A DNA stretch of 28,348 nt, from positions 1 to 28,348 of the forward strand of contig DAOVET010000032.1 in NCBI GenBank assembly GCA_030668825.1, in the 5' to 3' direction. This DNA comes from Candidatus Heimdallarchaeota archaeon (GTDB lineage Archaea > Asgardarchaeota > Heimdallarchaeia > Heimdallarchaeales > Heimdallarchaeaceae). Every line of letters starts with the position of its first letter. Within the stretch, counting starts at the first letter, position 1. This document shows, one piece after another, positions 9,898 through 27,165 of this stretch. The notes beneath the pieces were generated by a model. That model saw only the letters and a program-made list of their open reading frames with translations, ran no database searches and was not told the origin of the DNA. A program made the position numbers and the translations under genes.

Positions 9898-10003
9898 TAT
9901 CTTCAATATAACAACGGGAACATAATCTATAAAAGCTTTGTATTTACAAAAATTGGTTGAAAAACCCAAAAGAATTTAATAGAACATACTCTAATAAAAG
10001 GAT

Positions 10004-12345: not shown

Positions 12346-12711
12346 CTACATTTCTTCTAGACTTTTTATCAAAGCAACTAAGGCTTTGTATAAACAGTCT
12401 GAGCATTCTTTAGCATCAGGATCCATGAACAGTAGAGTTTCTCTTGTGTTTTCATAGACTTTTTGAGGTATTGTTCTACCTCTGAGCTCTATTCTTTTCT
12501 TTTTAGTTGGACAATAAATTACATTTTCATCATCCAAAACCACAGCGTTTAAACAAAATGTAGGGTTAGCAAACTCTTCCAAATCTGCAGTAAGAAGATC
12601 ATCTGGATCATAAAAAGAGACTAATAAAATCATTTCAAGCTCATCTTCAAGAACACAATAAGTAGTATATTCAATCTCTCTATGCATTGGACAGGGTTGC
12701 ATTATCCACAT
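12346..12711 (-). CDS. Small Cys-rich hypothetical protein, possible metal binder
   Basis: 121 aa with 'CPMH', two lone Cys, 'YCP' and 'CSDC'. No overlap with neighbours. Alternative start ATG 12702. Confidence 0.75.
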   Translation of the reverse strand: MWIMQPCPMHREIEYTTYCVLEDELEMILLVSFYDPDDLLTADLEEFANPTFCLNAVVLDDENVIYCPTKKKRIELRGRTIPQKVYENTRETLLFMDPDAKECSDCLYKALVALIKSLEEM

Positions 12712-12817: not shown

Positions 12818-15800
12818 TTATTGTCTTATAGGTGCCCTACTTCTGTAATCGTAGTAAATTTTGGTTATTTCCCCAACAATTTCTTCATTAAAGGTTACAA
12901 TTAAAAGTGGATCTCCACTTGGAGCTTTGTGTCCTAAGAAACCTTCTTCTATACCATCTCTGGTTCCCATCATTACTGTTAGGTTTGAATCATCCTTTAC
13001 AACTACATTCCCCATACCAAGCATTTTGCTTAAGATAACTTTATCTTCATCTGTATGAGCTGTTGTATTTGTTACAATTTCTAGTTTTCTAGCAAATGTT
13101 TCAATGAATTCAGAATCTATCCAATTTAGTCTTGGGCAAATTACTGTAGCAGAAGACTTTGTATTTCTCAAGAGAGACATCATAGTTCCATTAACTTGTT
13201 CGTGACCTGTTACTATCCACATATCTTCAATTGGATTTGGTTCAATTCCTGATCCCAGCGATAAAACACTTTTGATCAATTTCATTGATTCCCCAGTTGC
13301 ATCTAAAGCTCCCCCAATCTTATTTGGAATTGAACTTAGTGTTCCTGAAATACTAGTGTCTACATTTTCAATTTCTTGTTGAGTTCCTTTGATTATATTC
13401 TCTTTAAAACTCATAAGTTTGGAGCTGTAATCATCTTTCTCAGTATTTACAATCTTTGAATCCTCTTGAGCTGCATTCAATTTTTCTGTTAGAGAGTTCA
13501 AATTGGAATCAAATAGGTCAGTTAAAGTTTTTTCTAAATTACTGAGGTCTGCATTAACCGCATCATTTCCGGAAGTTATAGCCTCTGTAAGAGCATCCTT
13601 TGTTCCTTGTATATTAGTTACCAGGGCAGATGAATTTGAATCTGAATTAGTAATAAAGCTATTAACTTGATGAGACATGTTTAATTCATAATCATTCTTT
13701 TCTTTTTCAAACTCATTTTGAATTTCTGTGACATTATTAACAAAGTCAGTTGCCATGCGTTCATAGGATTTCTCTAGATCTCTTTGAACGCTAGTAAACA
13801 TTGTATCAATTTCTGTCTGAGCACCTACTTGAAATTCTTTTATGGAAGAGCTCAAATCGGTTGCAAATGCATCAGAATCAGTTTTAACCCATTTTGGATA
13901 ATTTGCACCAAGCTTTTGAAGCTCTCCCTTAGTAGTTGCAAGTGCTTCATCTAATAATGATGATTTCTCAGGAGAAACATTTAATTCCGCCAATACACCT
14001 TCAGTACCTTCAATAAACTGTTGGACTTCTTGCTCAATTAAATCATTAATCTCGGTTTCAACCTTTGCTGTTTGAGCACTATAATTTTTAGCAGCCTCAT
14101 CTAGAGTGACAGAAATGTCAGTATCAAGAGCCTCTTTCGCAGATTTAAATTCACTTTGCAAAGATTTCATTGTTACATCCATTGAGGAAGTAGCTTTGGT
14201 CACTAATTTGGAATGATCTTCGATGTTTGTCTTGAGTAATTCCTGAAGATTAGTTGTTACTTCAATATTATTCTTCTTCATTACATCAAGAATTTCTTGT
14301 TTTGTTGTTTGCAGAGCTTCTAGACCATCTTGAATCGTCAGATGAATTTCTGTTTGACCTTCATTATCTTCAGTTGAATCTGGAACTTGGAGAAGTTCAT
14401 CTAATGAACCACTTATGGATTTAGTTATATCCGAAAATGCTTTAGATTCAGCTCCTATTACATCAGCTAATGATTTAGTGCTTGTCCCTTGTAGCTCATT
14501 AAATTGCTCTTCATAAATAGTATAAGTTTCTTCAATAGTTCTTTTCATATCATCTGAAGATGCTGTAAATTGACTACTGATTTCACTCCTTGAAATGTCA
14601 AATGATTGGCTGGTTTTTTGAAGGGTATCTATTGTGAATCTTGCTAAATCTTCTAACCTTATATTCATTTTTTCAAATATCTCATTAGACAAAGAATTCA
14701 TTGAATTTGTCAATGTTTGAATCATTTCCTCCATTTTATTTCCAACATTCTCCTTTACTAGCTCAATGTCTCTATTCATGCTTCCGATTAGTTGAGCCAT
14801 TCGTGGTCCCTCTTCTTTTCCAAATACTTTTTGAAGCTGTTTCTCATCTAATCCTTGAAATGCTTGGTTAATCACTTCAATTTTTGCAATTGATGATTTA
14901 AGCTGATCATCTAGCTCTTGTAATCTTTCAATGCTAGCTTGATAGTTAATCTGAACAACATTAGGCACTTCATCTCTAACATCTCTTCCTCTTTTAGAGA
15001 ATTCATCTGAAAAAACTTCAACATCAGATTTGAATTTGTTTTCCTTTTCAGTTATTAGATTTTGAATTGTTTCATTGTTATCCTTAACGTTTTCCTCAAT
15101 ATTAGAGATAACAGTGGCTTTTAATTCATTAATATGAGAAGTAAAGTTTTCTTTGAATTCCTCATGTGAGGTGGCAAACTTTTCTTTCCGAGCTTTCAAA
15201 GCCTTTTCATATTTAGCAGTTGTTTTTGATAATTTATCTAAATACGCGTTAGTTGATTCTCTAAATGCAGTCATTATGTCTTCTACAAATAGTTTGATTT
15301 GATTACTTACGTTTTCAATTGAAGAAGACAGATTTTCTTCAAACAGATTGAAACCAATTTCTATTCCTGAATTAAGTAAAGATAGTAAACTATCGCTATT
15401 CTTTTTGAATTCCTTAAGATATGAGTTTAAATCATTACTCAGTTTAACTTTCATTTCCTCTGTTTTTGCTTCAGCTTGTGTAATTAAATCTCCCAGCTTT
15501 TCAACAGAATCAACTTTAGTTTTATTCAGTAAATCAACAAACTGATTCTCATTCCCTCTCAAAATATTTACCGCTGTTTCTTTTGAATTATCAATTGAGG
15601 TTCTAATTCTGTCTGTTGTTGCGTCTTCAAGTTTTTTCAATTCATCATTTAATGAAATAAGAACTTGCTGTACTGTTACTTGATATTCGTCAAGCTTTTT
15701 CTCATAGTTTGCGATAATTTTGTTTACTGTATCAGAAAGCTTCTTAGAGGAATCTCTCACTACTACGTTTGAATCTGCTGAGATCTTTTTAACAGTTTCA

Positions 15801-16591
15801 TCAGTAACAGTTATAATTACATCTTTTCGTTCTGCTGCTGCTTCTATGAATTCCTGAAGCTGAACTGATAAGCTTTCTTTTATCCCCCCGACTTTTTCAA
15901 GAAGAGCATCAAGCTGTATTTGAGTTCTATCATCATGTTCTTTTTGCAGAAAACCTAGTCTTTCCTCTATTTTTACTTTGAATGAATCATGATGTTCACC
16001 TATTTTGTGAATCGTAGAATCAAAAGAACTAAGAACATTCTCTTTTACTCTTTGTGCAGTTTTTGCAATGGCATCACTGTTTGTTTCTGAAATATTGGAT
16101 GATTCTGATTTTAACCTTTCAATTATTTCAGCTGTTTCAGTTTTTCCTGACGAAATTACGTTTGTTATTGAATCCAAAAATTTAGTGGCAGTTGATGCAA
16201 TTTCAGAAGCATGATCATCAACATTTTCTGTAATGTTTACATGAAATGCTGATAACTGTGACCTGAAATTATTCATTGTTTTATTCCAATCTTCTTTTAC
16301 ATCATCACTTAATGCTTTTAATTCAGTTTCTAGACGAATAGATACATCCTCTGTAAGCTTAATTTGTGGGGGGAGTGGAATGAAATACGATGTTCCCTCT
16401 TGGTTTTTAGCTTTGATTTCTCTAATGTATCCTTTGCCAGCTAAACTATTTAGAGCACTTTGGATTATATTTGCGGGGTGTTTGTAATATGTTTGAATTT
16501 GACCGATGGTTCTAAAACCATATTGAACAATTATTGAATAAACTTGAACTTCATCTTTCGATAACCCAATCTTTTCTAATGTTCCTTCCAT
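12818..16591 (-). CDS. Giant TrmB-like protein: N-terminal wHTH, ~1000-aa coiled coil, C-terminal TrmB effector/PLD-fold-like domain
   Basis: N-term 'LEKIGLSKDEVQVY...ALNSLAGKGYI...YFIPLPP' resembles the TrmB wHTH. C-term 'WIVTGHEQV...LLRNTKSSATVICP...RDGIEEGFLG' resembles the TrmB C-terminal domain. The middle is amphipathic helical. Start is ATG 16591 or GTG 16600. Confidence 0.8.
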   Translation of the reverse strand: MEGTLEKIGLSKDEVQVYSIIVQYGFRTIGQIQTYYKHPANIIQSALNSLAGKGYIREIKAKNQEGTSYFIPLPPQIKLTEDVSIRLETELKALSDDVKEDWNKTMNNFRSQLSAFHVNITENVDDHASEIASTATKFLDSITNVISSGKTETAEIIERLKSESSNISETNSDAIAKTAQRVKENVLSSFDSTIHKIGEHHDSFKVKIEERLGFLQKEHDDRTQIQLDALLEKVGGIKESLSVQLQEFIEAAAERKDVIITVTDETVKKISADSNVVVRDSSKKLSDTVNKIIANYEKKLDEYQVTVQQVLISLNDELKKLEDATTDRIRTSIDNSKETAVNILRGNENQFVDLLNKTKVDSVEKLGDLITQAEAKTEEMKVKLSNDLNSYLKEFKKNSDSLLSLLNSGIEIGFNLFEENLSSSIENVSNQIKLFVEDIMTAFRESTNAYLDKLSKTTAKYEKALKARKEKFATSHEEFKENFTSHINELKATVISNIEENVKDNNETIQNLITEKENKFKSDVEVFSDEFSKRGRDVRDEVPNVVQINYQASIERLQELDDQLKSSIAKIEVINQAFQGLDEKQLQKVFGKEEGPRMAQLIGSMNRDIELVKENVGNKMEEMIQTLTNSMNSLSNEIFEKMNIRLEDLARFTIDTLQKTSQSFDISRSEISSQFTASSDDMKRTIEETYTIYEEQFNELQGTSTKSLADVIGAESKAFSDITKSISGSLDELLQVPDSTEDNEGQTEIHLTIQDGLEALQTTKQEILDVMKKNNIEVTTNLQELLKTNIEDHSKLVTKATSSMDVTMKSLQSEFKSAKEALDTDISVTLDEAAKNYSAQTAKVETEINDLIEQEVQQFIEGTEGVLAELNVSPEKSSLLDEALATTKGELQKLGANYPKWVKTDSDAFATDLSSSIKEFQVGAQTEIDTMFTSVQRDLEKSYERMATDFVNNVTEIQNEFEKEKNDYELNMSHQVNSFITNSDSNSSALVTNIQGTKDALTEAITSGNDAVNADLSNLEKTLTDLFDSNLNSLTEKLNAAQEDSKIVNTEKDDYSSKLMSFKENIIKGTQQEIENVDTSISGTLSSIPNKIGGALDATGESMKLIKSVLSLGSGIEPNPIEDMWIVTGHEQVNGTMMSLLRNTKSSATVICPRLNWIDSEFIETFARKLEIVTNTTAHTDEDKVILSKMLGMGNVVVKDDSNLTVMMGTRDGIEEGFLGHKAPSGDPLLIVTFNEEIVGEITKIYYDYRSRAPIRQ

Positions 16592-16605
16592 TTTAATCAC
16601 TTCTT

Positions 16606-18054
16606 TTATAATTGATCTTTTATTGTTTCAAGATTCCTTTCTAGTCTTTCTAATCGACCTATGAGATCTTTTCTCAACTTTTCTGCTTGTTCTGCTTTTT
16701 TGATATTGTCCTTTGCTTCAATTTCAAGATTAGTTACAGTGGAATCTTGTGTTTCAACAATCTTGCTTTTTGCGTTCGAGGACATAGTTGAAATTTCAGC
16801 TATAGTATCTTTTTGAGCTGAATCTATTCTTGAGGTAATTTGTTGACTTGTTCTTTCTAAGGAAACTTTTACATCAGTAATTTCCTTTTCAAGAATCGAT
16901 ATTCTTTCTTCTGCTGTTTTTGCAGCATTACCTTGTAGATTTTCAGATTTTTCAACAACATTTGTTAGAATATTATCTAAATGGCTTCTAATATCACCCT
17001 GTTCCCTTGACACAAAGGATTTTATTTCTTGTTTAATTGAATCTGATTGTTCAGAGAGAGTTGATAAAATTCCATCCACTTTATTGTTGAAATCCCCTTC
17101 AAACTCTTTAAGTTCAGAATCATGTTCATTATATTGTTTATTTGTTAAATCATCATAAGATCCTAGCATTGATTCTTTAGATGAATTGAAATTTGACATA
17201 GTTACTTCATTAACATCAATCATTCCAGTTTCATATTCTGCTAAAACGTCTTGTACTTTTGCAATTTCATCAACAAGATACTTGTCCATGGAATCGGTTA
17301 CATCAGATAATTCAGATTGAATTCTTTGAACTGCGTTATTAACTAGCTGTCCTAATTCACTTTTTATTCGATTAAAGCTTTCAAAGACAGATTCCATGTT
17401 TTCAGTTAACTTATCACCATACTCTGATCTTAAATGTTCTATAGATTCTTTCATGATGTTTTGAGCAATATTAATGTTAGATTCAATCTTTGCTCTCATA
17501 TCTTCTGAATTGTTCTTGAAGGTTGAAAGATTATTTCCCTTTACAGTACTAACATCTTCTTTTACACTATCAATTGCTTTTCTAAAAGCATTAACTTGAT
17601 TGTTTGCTAATCGTTCTAAATCTTGTTCATGGTTTGTAAGAGTGGTTCTTATTTTTTCACCAAATGAAGAAGAATACTCAACAAAGTTGGTTTTTCCTTC
17701 ATCTAAAATAGAAGAAATAGATTCATGTAGTTTAGATAATTCATTTTTTGTATTGTCTAACTTCGATACTACAGATTCTGATTGACTTTTAGTCCATTCA
17801 TCAATTAGTTTTTTATTTTCAGATACATTTGCTTCAATAATATCATCTAATGACTGTCTATTTGTGTCGATTAAATTGCGTAAATTCTCATTCAAACCAA
17901 TAAACTTGTTTTGAACTAAAGTTGCTAGAATTTGATAAAATTGATGTAATTCCTTCAAGTTTTCTAGAGATTCTTTAAAATTGACAATCTCTCCATCTAA
18001 ATTTTCAATTTCTCTTTTCACTTTTTCTAAATCTTTTGTTATTCTTTCTGACAT
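16606..18054 (-). CDS. All-helical long coiled-coil (apolipoprotein-like) hypothetical protein
   Basis: About 482 aa, no Pro or Cys seen, E/K/S/N/L/I-rich with periodic hydrophobics. SD GGTGA overlaps the upstream stop and precedes ATG 18054 (track start GTG 18063). Confidence 0.85.
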   Translation of the reverse strand: MSERITKDLEKVKREIENLDGEIVNFKESLENLKELHQFYQILATLVQNKFIGLNENLRNLIDTNRQSLDDIIEANVSENKKLIDEWTKSQSESVVSKLDNTKNELSKLHESISSILDEGKTNFVEYSSSFGEKIRTTLTNHEQDLERLANNQVNAFRKAIDSVKEDVSTVKGNNLSTFKNNSEDMRAKIESNINIAQNIMKESIEHLRSEYGDKLTENMESVFESFNRIKSELGQLVNNAVQRIQSELSDVTDSMDKYLVDEIAKVQDVLAEYETGMIDVNEVTMSNFNSSKESMLGSYDDLTNKQYNEHDSELKEFEGDFNNKVDGILSTLSEQSDSIKQEIKSFVSREQGDIRSHLDNILTNVVEKSENLQGNAAKTAEERISILEKEITDVKVSLERTSQQITSRIDSAQKDTIAEISTMSSNAKSKIVETQDSTVTNLEIEAKDNIKKAEQAEKLRKDLIGRLERLERNLETIKDQL

Positions 18055-18063
18055 CTTACTCAC

Positions 18064-19827
18064 CTAAAAATCCAATTCTTTTTCGATATTTTCAATAGAA
18101 ATTTCTTCTACTTCTTTTGGCTCAGGTTCTTCTAAAGGAATCTTTATTTCCTCTTCTCTCCTGTAAATCATATTTGTAAAATAATTGTGATGTATGCTTC
18201 CCTTTTCAAACATCTCAACTGCTTTTTTCCTAATTCTTTCGAAGTTAGTTTTGTCCCCCATGTTCTTATAACAATCAAGGCTTGATTTCAAGTAACCTCG
18301 TATAGCGTATTCACTTTTTTCTACAAGCAGTGTTACTGATAGTTTTTCAAATTGATCTGCAGCTCTTGCAAATGATCTATTTGCTTTAAGTTCTTCTTCA
18401 ACTGTTTTGTAATAAAAGGCAGATTTTAGGTAAAGTCTAGCTGCAAAATAAAAGTTCTTTTCTTCGAATTCTCTTGCGATTTTTTCGCAGAATGCTCCTG
18501 CTTGCTCTAATTCATTAATCTGTTCAAATTGTTGAGTATTGATCAAAGTTAAATCATATGCCTTTTGATATATTTTTCTCTCAATACATATATTAGCGAT
18601 TTTCTGAATTTTTGAAGCTACTGCAAAATCAGCAAGTCTGTCTCTAATTTTAACTGATAAGTTCCCAACTTTTTCTATAATCTTATCTGTTGGGGAGATG
18701 TATTTACTCAAATCCTCTAGAATGGAATCAAGTGTAACCATTAGTGAGGTAAGGGGACTGAATAATCTCATTCGGAACTTCATTGCTGTTAATAAGGATT
18801 CTTGCACCAAACGAGCATGTGTTGAACCAATCCACAAAAAACCTTTTTCTTCAAGTGACTTGAGAGCTTCAAGGGGGACATATGCAGTTAATTGTTCAAT
18901 CAAAAAAAGATTTTCATTGAATGAAGCCATTTCTGATAAGACAGACTCTTCTTCATCTGTTAGACTAAAGACCTTAGGAATATTTCTTTCAACAAAATCA
19001 TCGATTCCAAATCCAGATTTGATGAAGAAGTTACCTAAGTTTAGATCAAAGAAAGTTCTTTGACTATTATTAACAAGTTCTAGAATCCCTTTATTCACAA
19101 GTTGAGGTGCAATTCGTCGAAGATAAATCTCAGTATCTGAAACAGATAGAGGTTCTATACTAAAAATCTTTGAATTGTCTGTTAAATTTTTTTCATAGTC
19201 AAAATCAAAAAGATATTGCTTTGTTAAAGCAGAGATAATTACAATGTTGTATCCTCGAATAGATAGTTCCTTGATTATGGTTGAGAAGATTGGGTAAAAT
19301 TCTTGAATATCCATCAATTTGAATAAATGAATATTATCTACAAAGAAATACAAAGTTGTTTGTGTCTCCTGTAGCTTTTGGTTAACTTTATCTAGATTCT
19401 CGAAAAATAAATTGACATAAATCTCAGTATAAGTCTGGGAAGTTTGTTTCTTGATGTTCTCTTTGAGGGCAGGAAGATCATCACCTAATTTCTTTTTTCC
19501 TACTTTTTCAAGAACTGAACGCCAAGCTGGAGATATTTCATCAATCATATTTTTCCATTCTTTGAAGAACCCTAGCAAATCTTTTTCTTCAGGCACTAAA
19601 TCAAACATATGGAAAATATCTTTCCTTACTGATATAGAGGAAAATAATTTTCTTAAAAGAGAACTTTTTCCTGTTCCTTCATCACCAACTAGTAGTATAG
19701 AATGAGTTTTTTTTCCTTCTTTCTTCATGTCTTCTTTAATCTGACTAAAGTCTTTGATAATGTCTCTCAACCCATAAAAATCGTCAGGATTGCAAGGTTG
19801 GAAAAAGTTTGAATCTTGAGTACTCAT
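18064..19827 (-). CDS. STAND/archaeal-ATPase-like P-loop NTPase with wHTH and C-terminal SNAP-like TPR solenoid
   Basis: 'P.DFYGL' N-motif, Walker A GDEGTGKSS, Walker B-like LYFFVDNIH, 'IEPLS..D', wHTH-like 'ALKSLEEKGFLW', TPR-like 'AGAFCEKIA..FE...AARLYLKSAFYYK..E....ANRSFARAA'. SD GAGGT upstream. Confidence 0.8.
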   Translation of the reverse strand: MSTQDSNFFQPCNPDDFYGLRDIIKDFSQIKEDMKKEGKKTHSILLVGDEGTGKSSLLRKLFSSISVRKDIFHMFDLVPEEKDLLGFFKEWKNMIDEISPAWRSVLEKVGKKKLGDDLPALKENIKKQTSQTYTEIYVNLFFENLDKVNQKLQETQTTLYFFVDNIHLFKLMDIQEFYPIFSTIIKELSIRGYNIVIISALTKQYLFDFDYEKNLTDNSKIFSIEPLSVSDTEIYLRRIAPQLVNKGILELVNNSQRTFFDLNLGNFFIKSGFGIDDFVERNIPKVFSLTDEEESVLSEMASFNENLFLIEQLTAYVPLEALKSLEEKGFLWIGSTHARLVQESLLTAMKFRMRLFSPLTSLMVTLDSILEDLSKYISPTDKIIEKVGNLSVKIRDRLADFAVASKIQKIANICIERKIYQKAYDLTLINTQQFEQINELEQAGAFCEKIAREFEEKNFYFAARLYLKSAFYYKTVEEELKANRSFARAADQFEKLSVTLLVEKSEYAIRGYLKSSLDCYKNMGDKTNFERIRKKAVEMFEKGSIHHNYFTNMIYRREEEIKIPLEEPEPKEVEEISIENIEKELDF

Positions 19828-20039
19828 ATGACCTCACGTTATATTTCATTCTGTTTATATTAACCATATCTTATAAAATCTATGAATGTTCATAATATCC
19901 ACTAACACTATAGATTTTTTATCAAAATTAACTCTGTTGAAATACATTCTTAAAGTATATCTTACTTGTAAGTAGAAAACATTAAAAGTGTAAATGATAG
20001 ATGTAGCATGACTCAAACGCAGAGGTGTAAATATGATAG

Positions 20040-20459
20040 GTGAACGTTTTGTTAAATCCAGCAGAACTGGAAAGTTTAGACTACTTAGAAGAAGGGATGG
20101 CCTTTGCTCAAGAGAGGATAAGGAAACTTGAAAAAGATAACTTATTTTTGTTTGATTTACTTAATCAGAGTTTAATCATTTTGTTCGATCAATTAAATGA
20201 TAAACAGAAAGGAATTTTCTTTGAAAGTTATAGTCTAATAGAAAGAAGAAAAATATCTCTAAACCGTTTAGCAGAAAAAATTTCAACAAAGTTGGATATT
20301 TCCTTCTCAACAGCTAAATGGAATATAACTAAACTCAGAGATTTTGGTTTCTTCGAAACTATTGGTATGAGAGGTAACACCAAAACCACTCTAATATCAA
20401 CAATTATAGGTGACACACTCTATTCCACTCTAGGGCAGATCAAAAACAAAAATCGGTAA
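20040..20459 (+). CDS. Winged helix-turn-helix DNA-binding protein
   Basis: 'SLNRLAEKISTKLDISFSTAKWNITKLRDFGFF' HTH followed by a beta-wing 'ETIGMRGNTKTTLISTIIG'. GTG start is uncertain. Confidence 0.75.
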   Translation: MNVLLNPAELESLDYLEEGMAFAQERIRKLEKDNLFLFDLLNQSLIILFDQLNDKQKGIFFESYSLIERRKISLNRLAEKISTKLDISFSTAKWNITKLRDFGFFETIGMRGNTKTTLISTIIGDTLYSTLGQIKNKNR

Positions 20460-20516: not shown

Positions 20517-21437
20517 ATGAATGAATCATTCGAGAAGTATAAAAAATCTGGACATATCTTAGCGAAGACTCTCGAATATGCTAAAAGCTTAGTTAAACCT
20601 GGGATAAAGCTATTGGATATTGCAGAAAAAACTGAAGACTATATCCGAGGTCAATCTGCAGTTCCAGCTTTTCCTGTAAACATTTCTATAAATGAAATCG
20701 CTGCACATTATTCTCCAAGAATAGAAGACGATAGTATCATACCAGAAGCATCTATTGTAAAAATTGATGCTGGTGTCTCTGTTGATGGATATCTTACAGA
20801 CGCAGCAAGAACCCTAGTTTTTGATGAAAAATGGCTACCAATGAAAAATCTTGCTAGAAAAGCTCTCAACTCTGCCTTAAATGCTGTTCAGGTTAATGAA
20901 AGTGTTTTTAGAATCGGAGAAATTGTTCAAAAAACTATAGAAGAAGAAGGTTTCAAACCCATTGTGAATTTAAGTGGGCATTCACTTGCTCATTATTCTT
21001 TACATGATGGTATTTCTATTCCTAATTATAGTGTATCTAAAGAAGCTAGAGATTCCACACATGTATTCCAAATAGGCAAAGCTTACGCAATTGAACCTTT
21101 TGTTACTTCAGGAATAGGGAGAGTAGTCGATACTGATCAAGAAACAATTTTCAGACATTATAAAAAAATAGATGCATCATCATTATCAAACCAATTCAGA
21201 GAAATTTACAGATTTATTGATGATAACTTCAATAGATTACCCTTCAGTTGGAGATGGGTTTACAATGCTGGCTACTCAAAAGAAAAAGTACATAAAGTAA
21301 GGAATTTTCTACTAAAACGTAATATTGTTCATGGATATCCTGTTCTAATTGAAGCTACAGATGCTCCAGTAACACAAGAAGAAGAAACTGTGTACATAGG
21401 AGAGGACAAAATACATATCCTGACAAAAAATAAATAG
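20517..21437 (+). CDS. map: Methionine aminopeptidase type II (archaeal)
   Basis: 'PAFPVNISINEIAAHYSP', metal ligands in KIDAG, LTDAA, LSGHSL, AIEPF and TQEEETV, plus the type II helical insertion ('LPFSWRW...GYPVL'). SD GAGGT. Confidence 0.95.
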   Translation: MNESFEKYKKSGHILAKTLEYAKSLVKPGIKLLDIAEKTEDYIRGQSAVPAFPVNISINEIAAHYSPRIEDDSIIPEASIVKIDAGVSVDGYLTDAARTLVFDEKWLPMKNLARKALNSALNAVQVNESVFRIGEIVQKTIEEEGFKPIVNLSGHSLAHYSLHDGISIPNYSVSKEARDSTHVFQIGKAYAIEPFVTSGIGRVVDTDQETIFRHYKKIDASSLSNQFREIYRFIDDNFNRLPFSWRWVYNAGYSKEKVHKVRNFLLKRNIVHGYPVLIEATDAPVTQEEETVYIGEDKIHILTKNK

Positions 21438-21452
21438 AAAAAGAAATGAGGT

Positions 21453-22637
21453 TTAAATTATCAGATCTTCAAGCTCTCTTGAATAAGGAGTTATTAATTC
21501 AGAACTATCTTCAGTTATTATCACAGTGTCAGAGTGTCTAAAACCACCAAACTTATACTCATATATTCCAGGTTCACATGTAAAAACCATTCCTGGTTTC
21601 ATTATCTCTTCGACTCCTATGTCTAAGAAAGGCGCTTCATGCCCTTCAAGTCCTATAGCATGTCCAGTGTGATGTTGAACAAGATGGAAAACACCTTCAT
21701 CTTTGAGGACTTTTCTTGCAGCTTTATCTACTTCACTACATGGAATGTGAGGTTTAAATGCATCTAACGCAGCATCTTGTGATTTTTTCATTACATCATA
21801 GTATCTTTTTTGTTTCTCATTAGGTGGACCAATAAACATTGTTCTTTCCAATTCAGAATGATATCCAGAAACATTTGCAGACGCACCAGTAACCAAAACA
21901 TCTCCCTTTTTGAATATTGTCTTTTGAATTACTGAATGTGGTATAGCTGACCATTCTCCAATTTGCCCCCTATATCCCGCTCTAGCTGGAAGTAACCCTC
22001 TAGGAATGAATCCTTCCAGATTTTCAAGCATTTTTTCAGATGCTTCCATGCAAGCTTGTAAAGAAACTTCTACTTCATTTTTACCTTCAGCGGTATAATC
22101 TTGTAACAAATGGTGAGCTAAATCGCCATACTTGGCTGAAATCTTAATTAAACGGAGCTCTTCTTCATCCTTCATTTTTCTCATTTCGTTGATTAGATTT
22201 GAGTGTAACTCTGTTGTAGCTTTACCTTCGAGTAGATCTGTTAGTTTGGGTCCTTCGTATCCCCAGTAACTTGAAAATGATGGAGATTCCACCCCAATTT
22301 TTGTATTTGTAACTTTTCTTTCTTCAAGCCTATTAATAAAGACATTTGCTGGATGTTTTTCATCAGGATATTCAAAATAAATTTCTCTTTCTACCCAGGG
22401 AATTTTCTCAATAAGATGTTCTCTTTCCAATCGAGGAACGTAAAACCAAGGTTCCTGAGAACGAGGGAGAACTAGGCAAATCGGTCTTTCAGTTGGAATA
22501 AAGTGATAACCTGTTAAATAATAAATTGATAATGGACTGAAGAAAATCATTGAACCAAGTTCTTTTTTATCCATGAAATCATTGACTCTTTCAACTCGTC
22601 TAATGTGGTTTTCTTTTGATATTGAATACTTATTCAT
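21453..22637 (-). CDS. M24 pita-bread hydrolase (Xaa-Pro peptidase/creatinase family) with a non-canonical metal site
   Basis: Creatinase_N-like N-domain, 'R.MKDEEEL', 'SAIPH', 'GYHSELERT', 'HHTGHAIGLEGHEAP', 'GMVFTCEPGIY', 'GFRHSDTV'. Confidence 0.9.
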   Translation of the reverse strand: MNKYSISKENHIRRVERVNDFMDKKELGSMIFFSPLSIYYLTGYHFIPTERPICLVLPRSQEPWFYVPRLEREHLIEKIPWVEREIYFEYPDEKHPANVFINRLEERKVTNTKIGVESPSFSSYWGYEGPKLTDLLEGKATTELHSNLINEMRKMKDEEELRLIKISAKYGDLAHHLLQDYTAEGKNEVEVSLQACMEASEKMLENLEGFIPRGLLPARAGYRGQIGEWSAIPHSVIQKTIFKKGDVLVTGASANVSGYHSELERTMFIGPPNEKQKRYYDVMKKSQDAALDAFKPHIPCSEVDKAARKVLKDEGVFHLVQHHTGHAIGLEGHEAPFLDIGVEEIMKPGMVFTCEPGIYEYKFGGFRHSDTVIITEDSSELITPYSRELEDLII

Positions 22638-22713: not shown

Positions 22714-23163
22714 TCAGGAAAATCCAATAACTGTACTAGTGGGAAGTCTCTTTCTTATTTGTATCAAATCTGGTTTATAAAGATAAAATTCCTTAGACGC
22801 TAACTGTTCTTCCAGAAACTTATCCCAATCAATTTCTATCATCTCTAATGTTTTAAGAACTAAATATTGTTCAATTAATTCCCCAGAAATAACATAAGTT
22901 CCTTGTCCAATATCTCTCCTTCTTATAATTAAAAATGGCAGGTGAACTAATGAAATCAAGTCTTGAGGACATAGAGACTGTAATAGATCTATTTCTTTCT
23001 TATCAATGTAAAGCTGATTATTTTCTCGACTAACGTAATAATTGTATCCCTTAAGAGCTTGTTCAAGAGTAACTCTCTTCTTCGGAAGATGCATATTAAT
23101 TGAGTCAATTTCATGCTTAAGGAAATTAGATAATTTATCGTCAAATCCCAAGAAATTCACCAT
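22714..23163 (-). CDS. DUF61 (UPF0216) family archaeal protein
   Basis: 'EIDSINMHLPKKRVTLEQAL', 'VHLPFLI', 'LYKPDL..IRKRLPTST' match my recollection of the DUF61 pattern. Confidence 0.8.
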   Translation of the reverse strand: MVNFLGFDDKLSNFLKHEIDSINMHLPKKRVTLEQALKGYNYYVSRENNQLYIDKKEIDLLQSLCPQDLISLVHLPFLIIRRRDIGQGTYVISGELIEQYLVLKTLEMIEIDWDKFLEEQLASKEFYLYKPDLIQIRKRLPTSTVIGFS

Positions 23164-23166
23164 CTA

Positions 23167-23979
23167 TTACTTTGCATGTTTGCGTCGAAAGAACACTTTG
23201 TCAATATTGCTAAAAAGGAAGAAAGATCCTGAAATCATTGGAATGAACAAAGTTATCACTAGTGTTATTAAGAAAATGAAAGCAGCGCCAGTTATCCATG
23301 TAAATAAAATATCCTTCTCATCTAATGCATTTGTTATGAACACCAAAACTGTAGCATATACTACATTAAGAATTACATCTAATATGAAAGAAAAAGCTAC
23401 CCATTTCATAGTACTCTTCTTATCACTTGTAAATTTCCTTACAATTTTTCCAAGAACATATCCTATTAGAATAGCAAAAGGAATACCAAGTAAGAATGAA
23501 ATTCCTCGGATTTGTAGAAAGTCCGATATATTTGCTGGAAAAGGAATGATATTCAAGTTCTGATCAGTTATATCTATTGAAGCTAATGCAATAAGGAAGT
23601 TCAAAGTATAGTGAATGAAAGACACTAATACTGTGAAAAGTGAAATGAACAAAAGTTTTTGTCCAAAATTGTATTTTTTCTCTGCAGAATCTATGATTAA
23701 AATATCCTTTTCTTTTGTTTTTTTCTTTTTTGCAACTGGTTTGTCAATTTTATCAAAATCAGGTAACTTAGGGGAAGATGCTTCTTCAACAGATTCTAAT
23801 TCAGGAGAAATGGTAGCAGGAATTTCAACAGGTGGAGCAACTGCGATTTCAGGAGGAGCTTCAACCTCATGAGTTACAACTTCAGCTTCTAATACATCTG
23901 CATCACAAAAGACACACTTTTTAGTCCCTTTTATATTTATATTTCCACATTCTGGGCAACGAACAAATTCTTCACTCAT
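23167..23979 (-). CDS. Zinc-ribbon membrane protein
   Basis: N-terminal CPECG-x8-CVFC ribbon, Pro/Glu-rich linker, Lys run, then about 4 TM helices. Confidence 0.8.
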   Translation of the reverse strand: MSEEFVRCPECGNINIKGTKKCVFCDADVLEAEVVTHEVEAPPEIAVAPPVEIPATISPELESVEEASSPKLPDFDKIDKPVAKKKKTKEKDILIIDSAEKKYNFGQKLLFISLFTVLVSFIHYTLNFLIALASIDITDQNLNIIPFPANISDFLQIRGISFLLGIPFAILIGYVLGKIVRKFTSDKKSTMKWVAFSFILDVILNVVYATVLVFITNALDEKDILFTWITGAAFIFLITLVITLFIPMISGSFFLFSNIDKVFFRRKHAK

Positions 23980-24031: not shown

Positions 24032-25204
24032 TTAGTAATCTACCTTATTTTCTTTAGACTCTTTAATCAGAACATCAAAAAGCTTTGATTGCTTTGAAGG
24101 CATTTTCATAATTTTTTTCAGTTCTGTTAACTGGTTCTTCTCTTCCTCTGATATTCTTTCAGGAACTGAATAATGAATTACAATCAAGAAATCACCATAA
24201 TTCATTCCATATTGTGTTTTTCGTTGAATGCCTTTTCTTTGTAATCGGAGTACGTTTCCTTCCCTAGTCTTCTTAGGAATTTTTACTTTTTCTGGTCCAT
24301 AAAGTGTTGGAATAACAAATTCTCCTCCAAGAATAGCTAGAGGAAAGGGAATTTCTATTTCCACAATGATGTTATCCGCTTGTCTCTTGTAAAACGAATG
24401 GGGCTCAACTATCAATCTTATTTGAAGATCGCCTCTTGAACCGCCTAACCTACCTTCTTCTCCTTTGTTACGAATTCTTAAACGGAAACCTGAATCAACA
24501 CCAGGAGGTATTACTAATTTTAATCTTTCATTTTCTTTAGCTCTACCTGATCCCCTGCATTCTTTGCAAAGTTTATCGATCATCTCTCCTTTACCCTGAC
24601 ATTTACTGCAGTTCTGTTGTGAAATATATCTTGTAAAACCCATTTGTCTAGTTACAGTTTCAATTCCAGAACCTTGACAATTGTCACATTTCTTTGGTTG
24701 TGTTCCTTCTTGGGCTCCACTTCCCTTGCATCTTTCACATTCTTTCTTTATAGGAACTTCAACTATTTTTTGCGTTCCAAATATTGCTTCTGTAAAAGAA
24801 ATTTGGTAATTCATCAATAAATCTGAACCTTTTTGTGGTCCTGAAGATCTAGACCTACGTCTTCCTCCAAAGAATTGACTAAAGAGGTCATCACCCATGA
24901 AGTCATCTCTAAAGAGGGATGAGAACAAATCCGAAATTGTTGAGAAATCTCCCGAATTTACTGAAGAGAAATCGGAATGAACTCCAGCGAATCCAAATCT
25001 ATCATAAGCAGTTCTTTTCTCTGAATTAGAAAGTATATCATAAGCTTCTGTAGCTTCTTTGAATTTTTCAGCTGCAGCTGAATCATCAGGATTTTTGTCA
25101 GGATGATGTTGCATAGCTAGTTTTCGAAAAGCTTTTTTAATATCTGAATCTGAGGCATCTTTTGATATACCAAGGACTTCGTAGTAATCTCGTTTTTGGG
25201 ACAT
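24032..25204 (-). CDS. dnaJ: Chaperone DnaJ (class A Hsp40)
   Basis: J-domain with HPD, G/F region, four CxxCxGxG repeats, C-terminal substrate domains. SD GAGGT. Confidence 0.98.
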   Translation of the reverse strand: MSQKRDYYEVLGISKDASDSDIKKAFRKLAMQHHPDKNPDDSAAAEKFKEATEAYDILSNSEKRTAYDRFGFAGVHSDFSSVNSGDFSTISDLFSSLFRDDFMGDDLFSQFFGGRRRSRSSGPQKGSDLLMNYQISFTEAIFGTQKIVEVPIKKECERCKGSGAQEGTQPKKCDNCQGSGIETVTRQMGFTRYISQQNCSKCQGKGEMIDKLCKECRGSGRAKENERLKLVIPPGVDSGFRLRIRNKGEEGRLGGSRGDLQIRLIVEPHSFYKRQADNIIVEIEIPFPLAILGGEFVIPTLYGPEKVKIPKKTREGNVLRLQRKGIQRKTQYGMNYGDFLIVIHYSVPERISEEEKNQLTELKKIMKMPSKQSKLFDVLIKESKENKVDY

Positions 25205-25287
25205 GATTTGACCTCATCTATTTTAGAAGCAAACAAAATAGAAAATAAAAAGGGAATAAAAATGTTATCGGTTAGAGTGTTATAAAT

Positions 25288-27165
25288 TTACTCATCATCC
25301 TCTACGGGTTCATAATCCACATCGATAACTTGTTCATCATCAATATCATGTTGAGTTGGAGCACCAGGAGCACCAGGAGCATATTGGTCTTCTGGTTGAG
25401 CTTCACCAGGAACTTGACCTGTTTCCTGATAGATTCGCTGAGATATTTGCATCATAATTTGCATAAGTTCATCAGTTTTTGCTTTAATTTTCTCAGCATC
25501 TTCAGTTTCAGTTTCTTTCTTCAGTTCTTCCATCTTTTCTTCTAACGATTTCTTCTCAGAATCAGATATTTTGTCTCCTAATTCAGTGATTGTTTTCTCG
25601 GTAGAATATAGTGCTTGTTCTGCAGTATTTTTAGCTTCGATGATTAATTTTCGTTTCTCATCTTCTTCTCTGTATTTTTCTGAATCATTTCTCATTTTAT
25701 CTATGTCTTCATCTGATAAATGTGAAGATTGAATTGTTATTTTCTGTTCCTTATTTGTTCCTAAATCTTTGGCTGATACCTGTAGAATACCATTTGCATC
25801 CATATCAAATGCAACTTCAATCTTAGGTATATTTCGGCGAGCAGGGGGTATTCCAACTAGTTGAAATTGCCCTAAAGTAATATTATCTGAAGCCATGGTT
25901 CTTTCTCCTTGAAGAACATGAACTTCAACAGATGTTTGCATATCTGCAGCTGTTGTGAAGACTTTCTTCTTTGTAACTGGAATGGTAGTATTTCTATCTA
26001 TTAAAGGAGTCATAACTCCACCCAAGGTTTCAACACCCAATGTTAAAGGAGTCACATCAAGAAGTAAAATATCTTTAACTTCGCCGGCTAGAACAGCAGC
26101 TTGAACAGCAGCGCCTAAAGCAACAACTTCCTCAGGAGCAACCCCTTTATGTGGCTCTTTACCAAACAACTCCTTAGTCATATCTCTGATCATAGGCATT
26201 CTAGTAGCTCCACCAACCAAGATTACTTGGTCTAAATCACCAGGTTTGATTTTTCCATCTTTCAAAGCTTGTCTAGAAGGACCAGCACATTTCTCTACTA
26301 AATCCTTAGTCATATCTTCAAATTTAGCTCGAGTTAATTCCATATCGAGATGCTTTGGCCCTGAAGCATCAGCTGTAATGTATGGTAAACTGATTTGTGT
26401 TTTCAATTTAGATGTTAGTTCAATTTTAGCTTCTTCTGCAGCATCTTTTAATCTTTGAACAACTTTAGAATCTTTAGACAAATCTATACCTTCTTTCTTT
26501 TTGAATTCTTCACTAATCCAATCAATTATTCTTTGATCCCAATCATCCCCACCTAGTAGGTTATTTCCAGAAGTAGCAATTACTCTAAATAATCCATCAT
26601 CAAGTTCTAGAATTGAAATATCGAAAGTTCCTCCACCAAGATCAAAAACCAAAACTCTTTCTGCACCTTCTTTGTCTAGTCCATAGGCCAGAGCACTGGC
26701 AGTGGGTTCATTTACAATTCTCAAAACATCTAAACCAGCAATTTCTCCAGCATCTTTTGTAGCTTGCCTTTGAGAATCACTGAAATAAGCTGGAACAGTT
26801 ATAACAGCTTTGTGAATTTTCTGGTTGAGATATGCTTCAGCATCTTCTTTTAGTTTAGTTAAAATTATAGCAGAAATTTCTTCAGGGTGAAATTCTTTAT
26901 CATCTACTTTGAATCTAAAATCAGTACCCATTTTTCTCTTAATACTTCGAATAGTTCTATCAGGCAAGACTATAGCCTGTCTTTTTGCTTGTATTCCAAT
27001 AGTACGAGTTCCATCCTCATTGAATGTAACAACACTAGGAGTGATTCTTCCTCCTTCAATATTTGGAATAATCTCTGGTTTACCTGCAACCATATAAGCG
27101 ATACCTGAGTTAGTTGTACCTAAATCAATTCCAACGACAAGTTCTTTTTTTGTTTTATTACTCAT
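25288..27165 (-). CDS. dnaK: Chaperone DnaK (Hsp70)
   Basis: 'GIDLGTTNS', 'TVPAYF', 'NEPTA', 'DLGGGTFD', linker '[13 protein letters not shown]'. It lacks the N-terminal insert, as in Gram-positive/archaeal DnaK. SD GGTGA. Confidence 0.99.

Follow-up and report, generated by a model that had tools for sequence, protein, structure and literature searches.

A predicted STAND-class ATPase with a SNAP-type TPR-like sensor domain and its conserved operon of long helical proteins in Heimdallarchaeota

The best-known prokaryotic STAND proteins are mostly defence genes or regulators, and the SNAPs bind SNARE bundles through a basic face. [quoted passage not shown] 2021 mentions neither SNAP nor NSF. 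According to a 2026 preprint, SNARE-like genes were found in Heimdallarchaeia only, with Lokiarchaeia, Thorarchaeia and Odinarchaeia given as examples of other Asgard lineages in which none were found, and Heimdall SNARE complexes resist murine NSF; an archaeal Cdc48-like ATPase is proposed there as a hypothesis. The question of SNAP-like proteins in these archaea matters because, according to that preprint, the Heimdall SNARE bundle has no known disassembly factor. For the ATPase described here the study of PH0952 (PMC6468293) serves as mechanistic template. No description of a STAND-SNAP fusion in Asgard archaea, or of the operon analyzed below, was found in the literature.

The ATPase P0001 (587 amino acids) is the first gene of this operon and is encoded at 18064..19827 in a stretch of 28,348 nucleotides from a Candidatus Heimdallarchaeota contig (the window), on the reverse strand like all features below unless stated otherwise. 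It was assigned as a STAND-type P-loop NTPase from its open reading frame, its model and a Pfam match of AAA_16 to residues 37-175, which scores 36.4 bits (cutoff 32.6; E 9.7e-9). The original prediction had drawn attention to the span 18180-18620, corresponding to residues 403-550, and had proposed that a SNAP-like motif is fused there to a P-loop NTPase. The quoted peptide of 48 residues matches residues 443-490 (18358..18501) exactly and lies in the same reading frame as the AAA_16 domain, so that the fusion is real.

Structural statements refer to AlphaFold2 models, for which 19 and 29 related sequences had been aligned. The model of the full-length ATPase (pLDDT 86.8, pTM 0.80) contains a 36-residue leader and then, in the tripartite order of NOD modules, the nucleotide-binding domain, which is its single P-loop domain, the helical domain and the winged-helix domain. 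The nucleotide-binding domain comprises residues 37-228 (19144..19719), its limits being a reading of the strand order in the model. Its Walker A motif, G48..GTGKSS56 (19660-19686), is invariant at G48, G51, T52, G53, K54, S55 and S56, and the Walker B strand ends in D164-N165 (19333-19350), where both columns are invariant and D164 closes the hydrophobic strand. The invariant GxxGTGKSS and D164 agree with the P-loop core of STAND NTPases, with N165 in place of D/E. Since Walker B reads D-N and not the usual D-D/E, hydrolysis may be slow or absent. The helical domain (residues 229-290) and the winged-helix domain (residues 291-355), which is placed after this lid and carries a two-strand wing (331-333, 337-340), were delimited at 18763..19143 by the model and Foldseek. 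Between winged helix and sensor, residues 356-396 (18640..18762) contain two helices (358-374, 381-392) and form a connecting segment for which we borrow the name arm from PH0952 and MalT by analogy.

Foldseek searches with the whole model gave Avs3 (8DGC) as best match (E 1.1e-8, about 600 aligned columns), together with PH0952 (6MFV; E 5.4e-8 over 600 columns) and MalT (8BOB; E 2.7e-5). The other top matches were SAMD9, 2QEN, 2FNA, Avs4 and Avs5, NLRs including NLRPs, Cdc6/Orc1, CED-4 and Apaf-1; for Avs3, PH0952, SAMD9, the NLRs and Apaf-1/CED-4 the Foldseek probability was 1.00 over the full length. On this showing the NTPase models as STAND-like and not NSF-like, as had been anticipated. 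NSF was absent among the 42 chains listed from the top 50 ranks, and the AAA+ proteins among the listed matches were FtsH (ranks 28-42), RFC and Hsp104. Two observations bear on the proposal that the ATPase and the SNAP-like adaptor built into it form an analogue of NSF plus alpha-SNAP, which would dock along the helical bundle of its neighbours and disassemble it: a lone nucleotide-binding domain with a winged helix behind it is the STAND/Orc type, and the absence of NSF from the listed chains also speaks against the analogy. Because the architecture is that of a STAND protein and not of an NSF-type translocase, threading or disassembly lacks a structural basis.

At the sequence level the STAND-specific Pfam models remained below their cutoffs in the window ATPase (NACHT E 0.019, nSTAND1 E 0.21). 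The best nSTAND1 match among 29 homologues reached E 0.0042, and the distant family member P0059 passed the nSTAND1 cutoff with 37.3 bits versus 27.1. ATPase_2 matched 16 of the 29 homologues, always below cutoff, and the next-nearest P-loop relatives were Mrr-nuclease-nSTAND1 proteins (13 of 19 scanned). A profile of the whole family found P-loop noise only among PDB sequences (best E 0.036), and in NCBIfam none of the three operon proteins came close to a cutoff. The structural matches to Avs3, Avs4 and Avs5 and the Mrr-nuclease-nSTAND1 relatives favour an antiviral, Avs-like STAND module, in which the TPR sensor would recognize a viral protein and the coiled-coil proteins would be the effectors. 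A figure legend that calls PF14938 'TPR-like' and also lists NACHT among the fusions of SIRim immune proteins, points in the same direction. Against this, the PADLOC match of the ATPase is limited to the P-loop (mad8, residues 26-94), and no nuclease, TIR, SIR2 or protease effector domain was found with Pfam and NCBIfam.

The C-terminal repeat sensor expected of a STAND protein, of TPR, WD40 or LRR type, corresponds in the model to a solenoid of helical hairpins (residues 397-551; 18175..18639), which the models, Pfam matches in relatives and Foldseek characterize as a SNAP-type TPR-like alpha-solenoid. It consists of seven to eight antiparallel helices (pLDDT of the sensor model 87.5). Conservation of the ATPase peaks in the flagged stretch of this domain, with a mean majority fraction of 0.81 versus 0.71 for the nucleotide-binding domain; of the 48 columns of the quoted peptide, 13 are invariant in 29 homologues. 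The motifs FYFAARLY and FARAADQF in this peptide fit the aromatic/di-alanine pattern, both by eye and by pattern. When the four sensor hairpins were compared with hhalign, the best match (22 columns, E 0.015) did not make a convincing case for internal repeats.

The likeness to SNAP emerges from the family. The window ATPase itself yielded no SNAP or TPR match, neither with the whole protein (E<=1) nor with three C-terminal pieces (E<=10), and thus stays below the SNAP gathering cutoff of 25 bits; the only repeat matched was Clathrin (E 0.04-0.1). Among 19 orthologous C-terminal segments, SNAP (PF14938) matched nine, with a best E of 0.0014 and a best score of 18.6 bits. Ten of 25 distant relatives or fragments matched it at E<=0.1 and seven at E<=0.001, compared with none of 19 unrelated AAA_16/nSTAND proteins at the latter threshold. 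The best of these, P0069 (27.9 bits, E 2.1e-6), is the only one of the 25 that exceeds the cutoff. Across the family, the Pfam model that the C-terminal domain matches most often, and usually best, is PF14938. Classical TPR models performed less well: TPR_8 was found once among the 19 segments (E 0.15), TPR_12 reached E 0.003-0.007 in distant relatives, and TPR_8 surpassed SNAP in a single fragment (P0116). PF02071 matched four of the 19 segments, with E about 1.3. Judged by the 34-residue TPR model, the domain does not appear to be a classical TPR.

The alignments to SNAP cover only positions ~26-172 of the 282 in the model and fall in at least four registers (offsets 330, 389, 409 and about 430). 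About 155 structured residues are available in the sensor, and no counterpart of the C-terminal part of SNAP, beyond model position ~172, was matched. This similarity is located at the level of repeats and does not amount to a collinear SNAP domain, and the variety of registers, covering half of the model, argues against an NSF-SNAP analogue. A profile of the C-terminal domain, searched against PDB sequences at E<=10, matched nothing and hence none of the SNAP chains. A match of a single C-terminal sequence to Rad50 in the PDB (E 0.26) was dismissed as chance.

In Foldseek searches with the sensor, SNAP-family chains occupied every listed rank up to 21 (E 1.9e-4 to 2.1e-3), headed by Sec17 (E 1.9e-4), alpha-SNAP and gamma-SNAP (TMq 0.45). 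The TMq values for SNAPs (0.24-0.45) are equalled by those of the generic TPR proteins KLC2 (0.42) and LGN (0.40), and all lie below 0.5; fold-search statistics are generous for solenoids. The predicted SNAP likeness held for the family, in which SNAP is placed ahead of generic TPRs by Pfam and by Foldseek E-values, and did not hold for the window protein alone; TM-scores do not set the SNAPs apart from generic TPRs. The rank of SNAP/Sec17 as nearest family in both searches favours the NSF-SNAP analogue, and the equal TM-scores disfavour it. Taken together, the likeness to SNAP is weakly supported as real at the family level. The sensor probably belongs to the aromatic/di-alanine, SNAP-type subclass of TPR-like repeats, which would explain why it resembles alpha-SNAP/Sec17.

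Searches of the ESM Atlas with the sensor yielded scores of <=0.84, which serve as leads only, among them PF14938-type domains in Methanobacteriota and Bathyarchaeota. As such domains may occur outside Asgard archaea, the domain need not be specific to the eukaryotic stem. As things stand, the likeness to SNAP is a property of a TPR subclass which, judging from the Atlas leads, may be widespread in archaea. As it is also entered in the Asgard catalogues already, it should not be taken to indicate a proto-NSF/SNAP machine.

The sensor is basic (pI 8.85), in a protein with an overall pI of 5.3, and is followed by a disordered acidic linker (residues 552-573) and a conserved acidic tail (residues 574-587), which were recognized from the model and from conservation and together lie at 18067..18174. 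In the model, pLDDT drops under 50 here, and residues 578-584 form a short helix. The tail, which ends in ...EISIENIEKELDF, has a pI of 4.05 and a majority fraction of 0.81. Its occurrence is limited to a single clade, which makes up 15 of the 35 rows in the tree and has a split support of 100/100.

The two genes downstream of the ATPase gene encode the long helical neighbours on which the disassembly proposal was built, and both exist on the same strand in a conserved operon. The stop codon TAG of the ATPase gene is followed directly by GTG, or after 9 nt by ATG, and the second junction is a gap of 5 nt. The second gene (16606..18063) encodes an acidic, proline-free coiled-coil protein of 485 amino acids with a hendecad repeat (pI 4.80). 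The third (12818..16600) encodes a protein of 1260 amino acids, which begins with a TrmB winged HTH (PF01978; residues 8-75, nt 16376-16579; E 5.5e-9 and 4.2e-10, above the Pfam cutoff), continues with ~1000 residues of hendecad helical repeats and ends in a globular region of ~160 residues. TrmB proteins end in a PLD-like domain, which Pfam and the Atlas did not confirm here: the C-terminal 200 residues gave no Pfam match at E<=10, and Atlas scores for the C-terminal domain were <=0.81, with Regulator_TrmB and PLDc_2 clusters at 0.78 as leads only. The hydrophobic period is 3.66-3.67 in 15 of 15 orthologues of the 485-residue protein, with no signal at 3.5, and 3.68 in the 1260-residue protein. 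Neither partner has a signal peptide or a transmembrane segment (maximal 19-residue Kyte-Doolittle mean 0.65-0.82), and neither matches SNARE in Pfam. SNAREs carry a heptad motif and, usually, a C-terminal membrane anchor. From their sequences the partners thus appear to be soluble, acidic proteins (pI 4.7-4.8) of 11/3 hendecad periodicity and not SNARE-like.

These properties bear on the NSF-SNAP analogue. A basic sensor beside acidic long-helix neighbours, in a tight and conserved operon, would suit it; hendecad partners do not, as SNAREs are heptad proteins. With soluble hendecad partners that lack a membrane anchor and a STAND architecture in the ATPase, the proposed disassembly of coiled coils is judged very improbable, and the NSF-SNAP analogy is unsupported. 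A complex prediction for the 485-residue partner with the C-terminal domain, run without controls (score 0.00, mark 0.32), speaks neither for nor against binding.

The partners also match Apolipoprotein repeats in Pfam (50-69 bits, below the 90-bit cutoff) and one another in BLASTP (E 0.003, 21% identity); the latter similarity is probably one of repeats only. PADLOC models of the ZorA tail and of the LmuB coiled coils match them with E values down to 3.9e-16, which may be counted in favour of an Avs-like module. In the ZorA and LmuB models these matches occupy positions ~260-860, a region that in ZorA is presumably outside the membrane-motor domain, and PADLOC assigned no defence system.

The gene order of ATPase, 485-residue protein and large protein is conserved down to 47% ATPase identity. 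In 25 of 27 loci, 0-10 nt separate the ATPase stop from the start of the gene for the 485-residue protein, and a large gene (1256-1484 amino acids) follows it in all 18 loci reaching that far. An acidic protein of 121 amino acids with six cysteines and no Pfam match is encoded just downstream of the operon (12346..12711); of the 16 loci where the large gene is complete, 15 have this gene, and only 274 nt are left in the other one. Upstream of the ATPase, a GAGGT ribosome-binding element precedes the ATG by 4 nt, and a TATA-like box, TTTTATAAGATA (19867..19878), is located ~40 nt from the start and recurs in 8 of 8 related loci compared. The operon is adjoined by a divergent gene on the forward strand for a putative HTH protein of 139 amino acids (20040..20459; TK0271-family of NCBIfam, E 4.6e-4, below cutoff) in 26 of 27 loci, and MetAP is likewise present in 26 of 27. 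Strict vertical conservation beside housekeeping genes such as MetAP is unusual for the best-known prokaryotic STANDs and counts against a STAND-class switch.

This core neighbourhood is constant across all examined loci, from 97% down to 47% identity, which fits vertical inheritance and not the turnover of defence islands; an antiviral, Avs-like function is accordingly judged unlikely. The same neighbourhood lends some weight to a split transcriptional module of the MalT/LAL kind, in which the ATPase would sense a small molecule or protein with its TPR sensor and control DNA binding by the giant TrmB-HTH protein or by the 139-residue HTH protein. PH0952 and MalT are among its top structural matches, the TrmB winged helix of the large partner is above the Pfam cutoff, and the divergent HTH gene is conserved. 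However, a fibre of 1000 residues and a second of 485 residues would be superfluous for a transcription factor, and an operator or target was not identified. We regard such a module as doubtful, if less than far-fetched. It overlaps with the explanation preferred below and differs from it in the proposed output only.

The host is an Asgard archaeon, on which the original prediction had made its relevance for eukaryogenesis depend: 21 of 27 related loci are labelled Heimdallarchaeota, and the other six labels name no different class with confidence. The SNAP-type domain could act as adaptor for the homotetrameric Heimdall SNARE bundle and pass it to an unfoldase such as Cdc48 in the absence of NSF. 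That the tail-bearing subfamily carries the Heimdallarchaeota label in these 21 loci is consistent with this idea, as are the resistance of Heimdall SNAREs to murine NSF, the hypothetical archaeal Cdc48-like ATPase and the finding of SNARE-like genes in Heimdallarchaeia only, all reported in the 2026 preprint. However, a search of the ORFs of 100 amino acids or more in the window detected no SNARE-like, NSF or Cdc48 gene, the ATPase family as a whole, including this domain, extends to records labelled Promethearchaeota, Wukongarchaeota and Freyarchaeota, and the similarity to SNAP is weak. The chance that the domain serves SNARE bundles in this way is therefore considered extremely slight.

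On the observed domain architecture, SNAP-type repeat similarity, conserved operon and nature of the partners, the ATPase is probably a STAND-class nucleotide-gated switch with a SNAP-type TPR-like sensor, whose output would run via its operon partners. As for ligand identity, autoinhibition, multimerization and cellular role, we infer the following steps, mainly by analogy with PH0952 and MalT. In an ADP-bound resting state, sensor and arm would keep the nucleotide-binding core closed. A ligand on the sensor would release this hold and allow ATP binding, and the ATPase would multimerize into a platform. As it lacks an effector domain of its own, it most likely acts on, or by way of, its two co-translated partners, the larger of which may be anchored to DNA as a fibre by its TrmB winged helix. 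Because the sensor is basic and the most conserved part, it may grip an acidic surface, either that of the fibres or its own tail; in the latter case the acidic C-terminal tail would be an autoinhibitory plug. Plausibly it controls how a fibre or scaffold linked to DNA is assembled, or it regulates transcription. A bolder version, in which the sensor clamps sideways on the hendecad fibre of both partners, the NTPase assembles or remodels the DNA-tethered fibre and the archaeal aromatic/di-alanine domain is the stock of the eukaryotic SNAP adaptors, is decidedly improbable. It would amount to a filament or nucleoid scaffold of the Heimdall lineage for which no counterpart has been described.

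If the module does organize fibres tethered to DNA, the Heimdallarchaeia, which are central to the debate about the archaeal origins of eukaryotes, would gain a structural system specific to their lineage, and the module would represent the first cellular, non-immune role for an Asgard STAND switch. The annotation of the locus can be corrected to a STAND NTPase whose TPR sensor is of the SNAP type and two hendecad fibre proteins, one with a TrmB head.

Compared with known systems, the ATPase shares with PH0952 of Pyrococcus horikoshii and MalT of E. coli the sequence of nucleotide-binding domain, helical domain, winged helix, arm and helical-repeat sensor, and with PH0952 an archaeal origin. 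In contrast to both, it shows no sequence similarity beyond the P-loop, its sensor is shorter (~155 residues) and fits SNAP better than the models of classical TPRs, it has no fused DNA-binding effector, its Walker B reads D-N, it ends in an acidic tail and its gene lies in an operon with giant coiled-coil proteins. Avs3, Avs4 and Avs5 likewise combine a STAND core with a subsequent helical-repeat sensor and provide the best overall structural match, but they are much larger and carry N-terminal effector domains, whereas the ATPase has no effector, no match to a PADLOC Avs model and a conserved genomic position. P-loop, helical domain and winged helix are also found in the archaeal ATPase family (ATPase_2; 2QEN, 2FNA; TMt 0.45-0.49), whose ~350-residue proteins lack arm, sensor and tail. 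An NSF-type AAA+ unfoldase is built of ring-forming modules, in NSF as tandem D1/D2, and an N-terminal domain for substrate or adaptor, an arrangement that does not appear in the model of the ATPase. The sensor resembles alpha-SNAP, Sec17 and gamma-SNAP in its antiparallel helical hairpins and putative aromatic/di-alanine motifs, but is fused to a STAND NTPase whereas SNAPs are free, and we know of no NSF partner for it. The two partners resemble the coiled-coil tail of ZorA (PADLOC ZorA models, about positions 260-770) and the 11-mers of apolipoproteins in their long proline-poor helices with an 11/3 hydrophobic period; this likeness is probably compositional or at repeat level only, and, unlike ZorA, they have no membrane motor domain and one of them bears a TrmB DNA-binding head.

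The 587-aa ATPase encoded at 18064-19827 (minus strand) belongs to the STAND NTPases, has a SNAP-type TPR sensor and lacks an effector domain; its gene heads a conserved operon with two predicted hendecad fibre proteins in a Heimdall-labelled lineage. The description of an alpha-SNAP/Sec17-like motif fused to a P-loop NTPase next to long helical proteins is correct, because all three elements are present; the interpretation attached to it holds in part. The quoted peptide matches residues 443-490 letter for letter (nucleotides 18358-18501, minus strand), within the originally delimited span 18180-18620, which corresponds to residues 403-550. The P-loop NTPase occupies the N-terminal third of the protein (Pfam AAA_16 on residues 37-175, E 9.7e-9, over cutoff), and directly after the ATPase gene, on its strand, come two genes for long helical proteins (485 aa, 16606-18063; 1260 aa, 12818-16600). 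In the alignment of homologues and the model, Walker B reads D-N. The helical-repeat domain at residues 397-551, the putative sensor, has a basic pI of 8.85 and is more conserved than any other region of the ATPase. It is followed by a disordered acidic linker and a conserved acidic tail (residues 574-587, 18067-18108, minus strand; ...EISIENIEKELDF; pI 4.05), which resembles a short docking motif that might engage either the basic sensor of the same protein or a partner. The nucleotide-binding domain also carries a basic insert (residues 96-130, 19438-19542, minus strand; SP.WRS...KVGKKKLGDDLP; pI 9.2). This conserved insert is modelled in part with low confidence, and no evident counterpart was noted among the STAND matches.

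The ATPase family was also analyzed for sequence similarity to SNAP. Among 19 orthologous C-terminal segments scanned one by one against Pfam, SNAP (PF14938) was the family matching most segments (9/19, best E 0.0014). PF02071, the SNAP-specific model of aromatic/di-alanine repeats, matched four segments (E about 1.3), the Clathrin repeat likewise four, and TPR_8 only one (E 0.15). The window's own ATPase gave no SNAP or TPR match in Pfam, even with C-terminal pieces at E<=10, and a profile of the C-terminal domain retrieved no SNAP chains among PDB sequences at E<=10. SNAP was found at E<=0.1 in 10 of 25 distant relatives and fragments, of which P0069 exceeded the 25-bit cutoff (27.9 bits, E 2.1e-6) and P0059 reached 23.8 bits. 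Classical TPR models were weaker than SNAP in this set, with the exception of fragment P0116; P0054 matched TPR_12 and not SNAP. At E<=0.001 SNAP occurred in seven of the 25 relatives, but in none of 19 unrelated AAA_16/nSTAND proteins that are reached by the family profile via the P-loop and served as controls. The flagged peptide itself contains two aromatic/di-alanine motifs, FYFAARLY and FARAADQF. For equivalent positions of the family the SNAP model took up at least four registers (offsets 330, about 389, 409 and about 430), spaced about a helix or a hairpin apart, and only model positions about 26-172 of 282 were covered. The several registers and the partial coverage indicate a repeat-to-repeat similarity, not a collinear homologous domain.

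A confident AlphaFold2 model of residues 360-587 (pLDDT 87.5) shows stacked antiparallel helices. In a Foldseek search of the PDB, all matches listed down to rank 21 were Sec17, alpha-SNAP or gamma-SNAP (E 1.9e-4 to 2.1e-3), followed by kinesin light chain 2 (KLC2; 2.3e-3) and LGN (2.9e-3). TM-scores were low and overlapping, with 0.24-0.45 for SNAPs (best gamma-SNAP 2IFU, 0.45), 0.42 for KLC2 and 0.40 for LGN. Thus the preference for SNAP over generic TPRs held by E-value, whereas by TM-score the two were essentially level. We read the sensor not as a SNAP but as SNAP-type, a member of the aromatic/di-alanine subclass among TPR-like repeats.

The likeness to SNAP is a genuine signal, though a weak one that lies at the level of repeats and is already catalogued. 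Sec17-like Asgard domains are listed in Supplementary file 3 of PMC12962969, whose entries include a Helarchaeial domain-level orthogroup (residues 417-553) that is marked there as a significant eukaryotic signature protein, with SEC17 as one SwissProt match and a Theionarchaeal TIR-domain protein as another. A second Helarchaeial group (residues 1-160) matches SEC17, cog.004941 of Lokiarchaeia matches plant alpha-SNAP, and all three entries are credited there to Liu et al. 2021. The span 417-553 coincides with the position of the sensor in the ATPase family, and the orthogroup may represent this family. The main text of PMC12962969 does not discuss these entries, and the main text of the preprint of Liu et al. 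2021 is silent on them. In another preprint, a figure legend that also lists NACHT among SIRim-fused domains labels PF14938 just 'TPR-like'. For TPR proteins carrying PF14938, Atlas offers only leads (scores <=0.84), in Methanobacteriota, Bathyarchaeota and a Thorarchaeota cluster of 600 aa. Literature searches brought up no description of the ATPase-fibre operon, an unusual and uncharacterised one.

The ATPase stop codon TAG is spanned by a GGTGA element and directly followed by GTG, with the conserved ATG of the 485-aa gene 9 nt on; the junction to the giant gene measures 5 nt. The ATPase start is preceded, at a distance of about 40 nt, by a TATA-like box, TTTTATAAGATA, which is kept in 8/8 related loci examined. 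Across 27 related loci the 485-aa gene follows the ATPase at 0-10 nt in 25; one of the two exceptional contigs stops at the ATPase stop and the other inside an ATPase gene with an in-frame stop. The giant gene comes next in all 18 loci extending that far, and a 121-aa cysteine-rich gene in 15 of 16 informative loci. In the window the product of the latter (12346-12711, minus strand, directly downstream of the operon) is acidic, has six cysteines, matches no family and may be a fourth member of the module. Of the 27 loci, 26 have a divergent HTH gene and 26 a methionine aminopeptidase gene. The identities of the three operon proteins drop in parallel from 97% to 29-47%, which fits vertical co-inheritance in a core neighbourhood. 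A role of the operon as a defence system is possible but poorly supported, since PADLOC matched no system and the operon sits in a conserved core neighbourhood. A single in-frame stop interrupts the orthologous ATPase gene at codon 295 (...EEEE*VLAEM...) in one related locus (L004:4632-6356; record label Heimdallarchaeota AB_125). The other sequences have S, A or T at this codon, and the stop may reflect a sequencing error, a pseudogene or recoding.

Both partner proteins are acidic (pI 4.7-4.8), nearly free of proline and devoid of hydrophobic segments. Their hydrophobic period is 3.66-3.68 residues, equal to 11/3, and recurs in 15/15 orthologues of the 485-aa protein with a spectral power of 271-377 versus 34-41 for the highest peak of shuffled sequences, but only 2-23 at the heptad value of 3.5. 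Judged by sequence, the partners are hendecad fibres or amphipathic 11-mer repeat proteins; SNARE-like heptad bundles were rejected in view of this period and the little power at 3.5. The 11-mer repeat also explains sub-threshold matches of the partners to apolipoprotein repeats and to model regions of ZorA and LmuB, which we take to be coiled-coil parts. The 1260-aa protein has an N-terminal TrmB winged helix (over Pfam cutoff), an 11/3 helical repeat that stays in phase for about 1000 residues, and a globular C-terminal region of about 160 residues without a family match. Its relatives (1256-1489 aa), like those of the 485-aa protein, are labelled Heimdallarchaeota or Heimdallarchaeaceae where named. 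One distant relative, P0181, shows an ATG17-like match below threshold (30.6 bits, cutoff 43).

Close ATPase homologues (47-100% identity, nearly the same length) come from records labelled Heimdallarchaeota or Heimdallarchaeaceae, as do 21 of the 27 loci; the remaining six bear the labels Thorarchaeota (one), Promethearchaeati (one) and just 'archaeon' (four). An exhaustive profile search with the ATPase family yielded 78 proteins at E<=0.001, including about 20 full-length relatives (548-595 aa) with only 15-25% identity. The window's subfamily is a single clade (15/35 tree rows, split support 100/100), to which the conserved acidic tail is confined. A small door is left for the sensor as an adaptor for the Heimdall SNARE bundle. 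According to a 2026 preprint, Heimdall SNARE bundles resist murine NSF, the disassembly factor is left open, and Heimdallarchaeia is the only class in which SNARE-like genes were found. However, the distant full-length ATPase relatives, where named, are labelled Promethearchaeota, Wukongarchaeota or Freyarchaeota, outside Heimdallarchaeia; going by the labels, several Asgard lineages are represented in the family.

Elsewhere in the window, 1465-5934 (plus strand) encodes a 1489-aa protein in which PAS domains fill nearly the whole length (11 PAS_9 stretches, E 1e-130), with no output domain at E<=1e-4. Divergent ORFs of 359 aa (8890-9969, minus strand) and 326 aa (10004-10984, plus strand) have no Pfam match at E<=0.01. 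Two convergent M24 peptidase genes (20517-22637) encode the 306-aa methionine-aminopeptidase-like protein adjoining the operon (plus strand) and a 394-aa Xaa-Pro/creatinase-type protein (minus strand). The stretch 22714-23979 (minus strand) encodes a DUF61 protein (E 5e-23) and, after it, a 270-aa protein with weak N-terminal zinc-ribbon matches below cutoff (E 0.017-0.25) and, by eye, a linker rich in proline and glutamate and a hydrophobic C-terminal half. DnaJ and DnaK (Hsp70) genes lie side by side at 24032-27165 (minus strand).

The full-length ATPase model is confident (pLDDT 86.8, pTM 0.80). A Rossmann-like nucleotide-binding domain is followed by a helical domain, a winged helix (wing strands 331-333 and 337-340), a two-helix arm, the helical-repeat domain, and the disordered acidic linker with a short terminal helix. 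Proteins of the STAND architecture are described as resting as closed ADP-bound monomers, held by contacts among sensor, arm and nucleotide-binding core, and as multimerising upon inducer binding (PMC6468293). The ATPase is most likely a nucleotide-gated switch, which might multimerise likewise. Its basic SNAP-type sensor would bind an acidic surface as ligand, and the acidic tail may fill the sensor in the resting state and thereby autoinhibit it. The output of the switch would act on or through the co-translated fibres, the TrmB-headed one of which would be tethered to DNA.

Comparison with known structures places the ATPase among STAND proteins. Foldseek aligned the model over about 600 columns to Avs3 (E 1.1e-8), to the archaeal STAND-TPR protein PH0952 (6MFV, 5.4e-8) and likewise to SAMD9, Avs4, Avs5 and NLRPs; further matches were the archaeal ATPases 2QEN and 2FNA, Cdc6/Orc1, MalT, CED-4 and Apaf-1. 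Together with the domain order of the model, these matches bear out the original prediction that the NTPase is STAND-like and not NSF-like. The proposed analogy to a coiled-coil disassembly machine, in which NSF acts with alpha-SNAP, fails at the motor, since a STAND core is a switch and a platform for assembly rather than a ring that threads.
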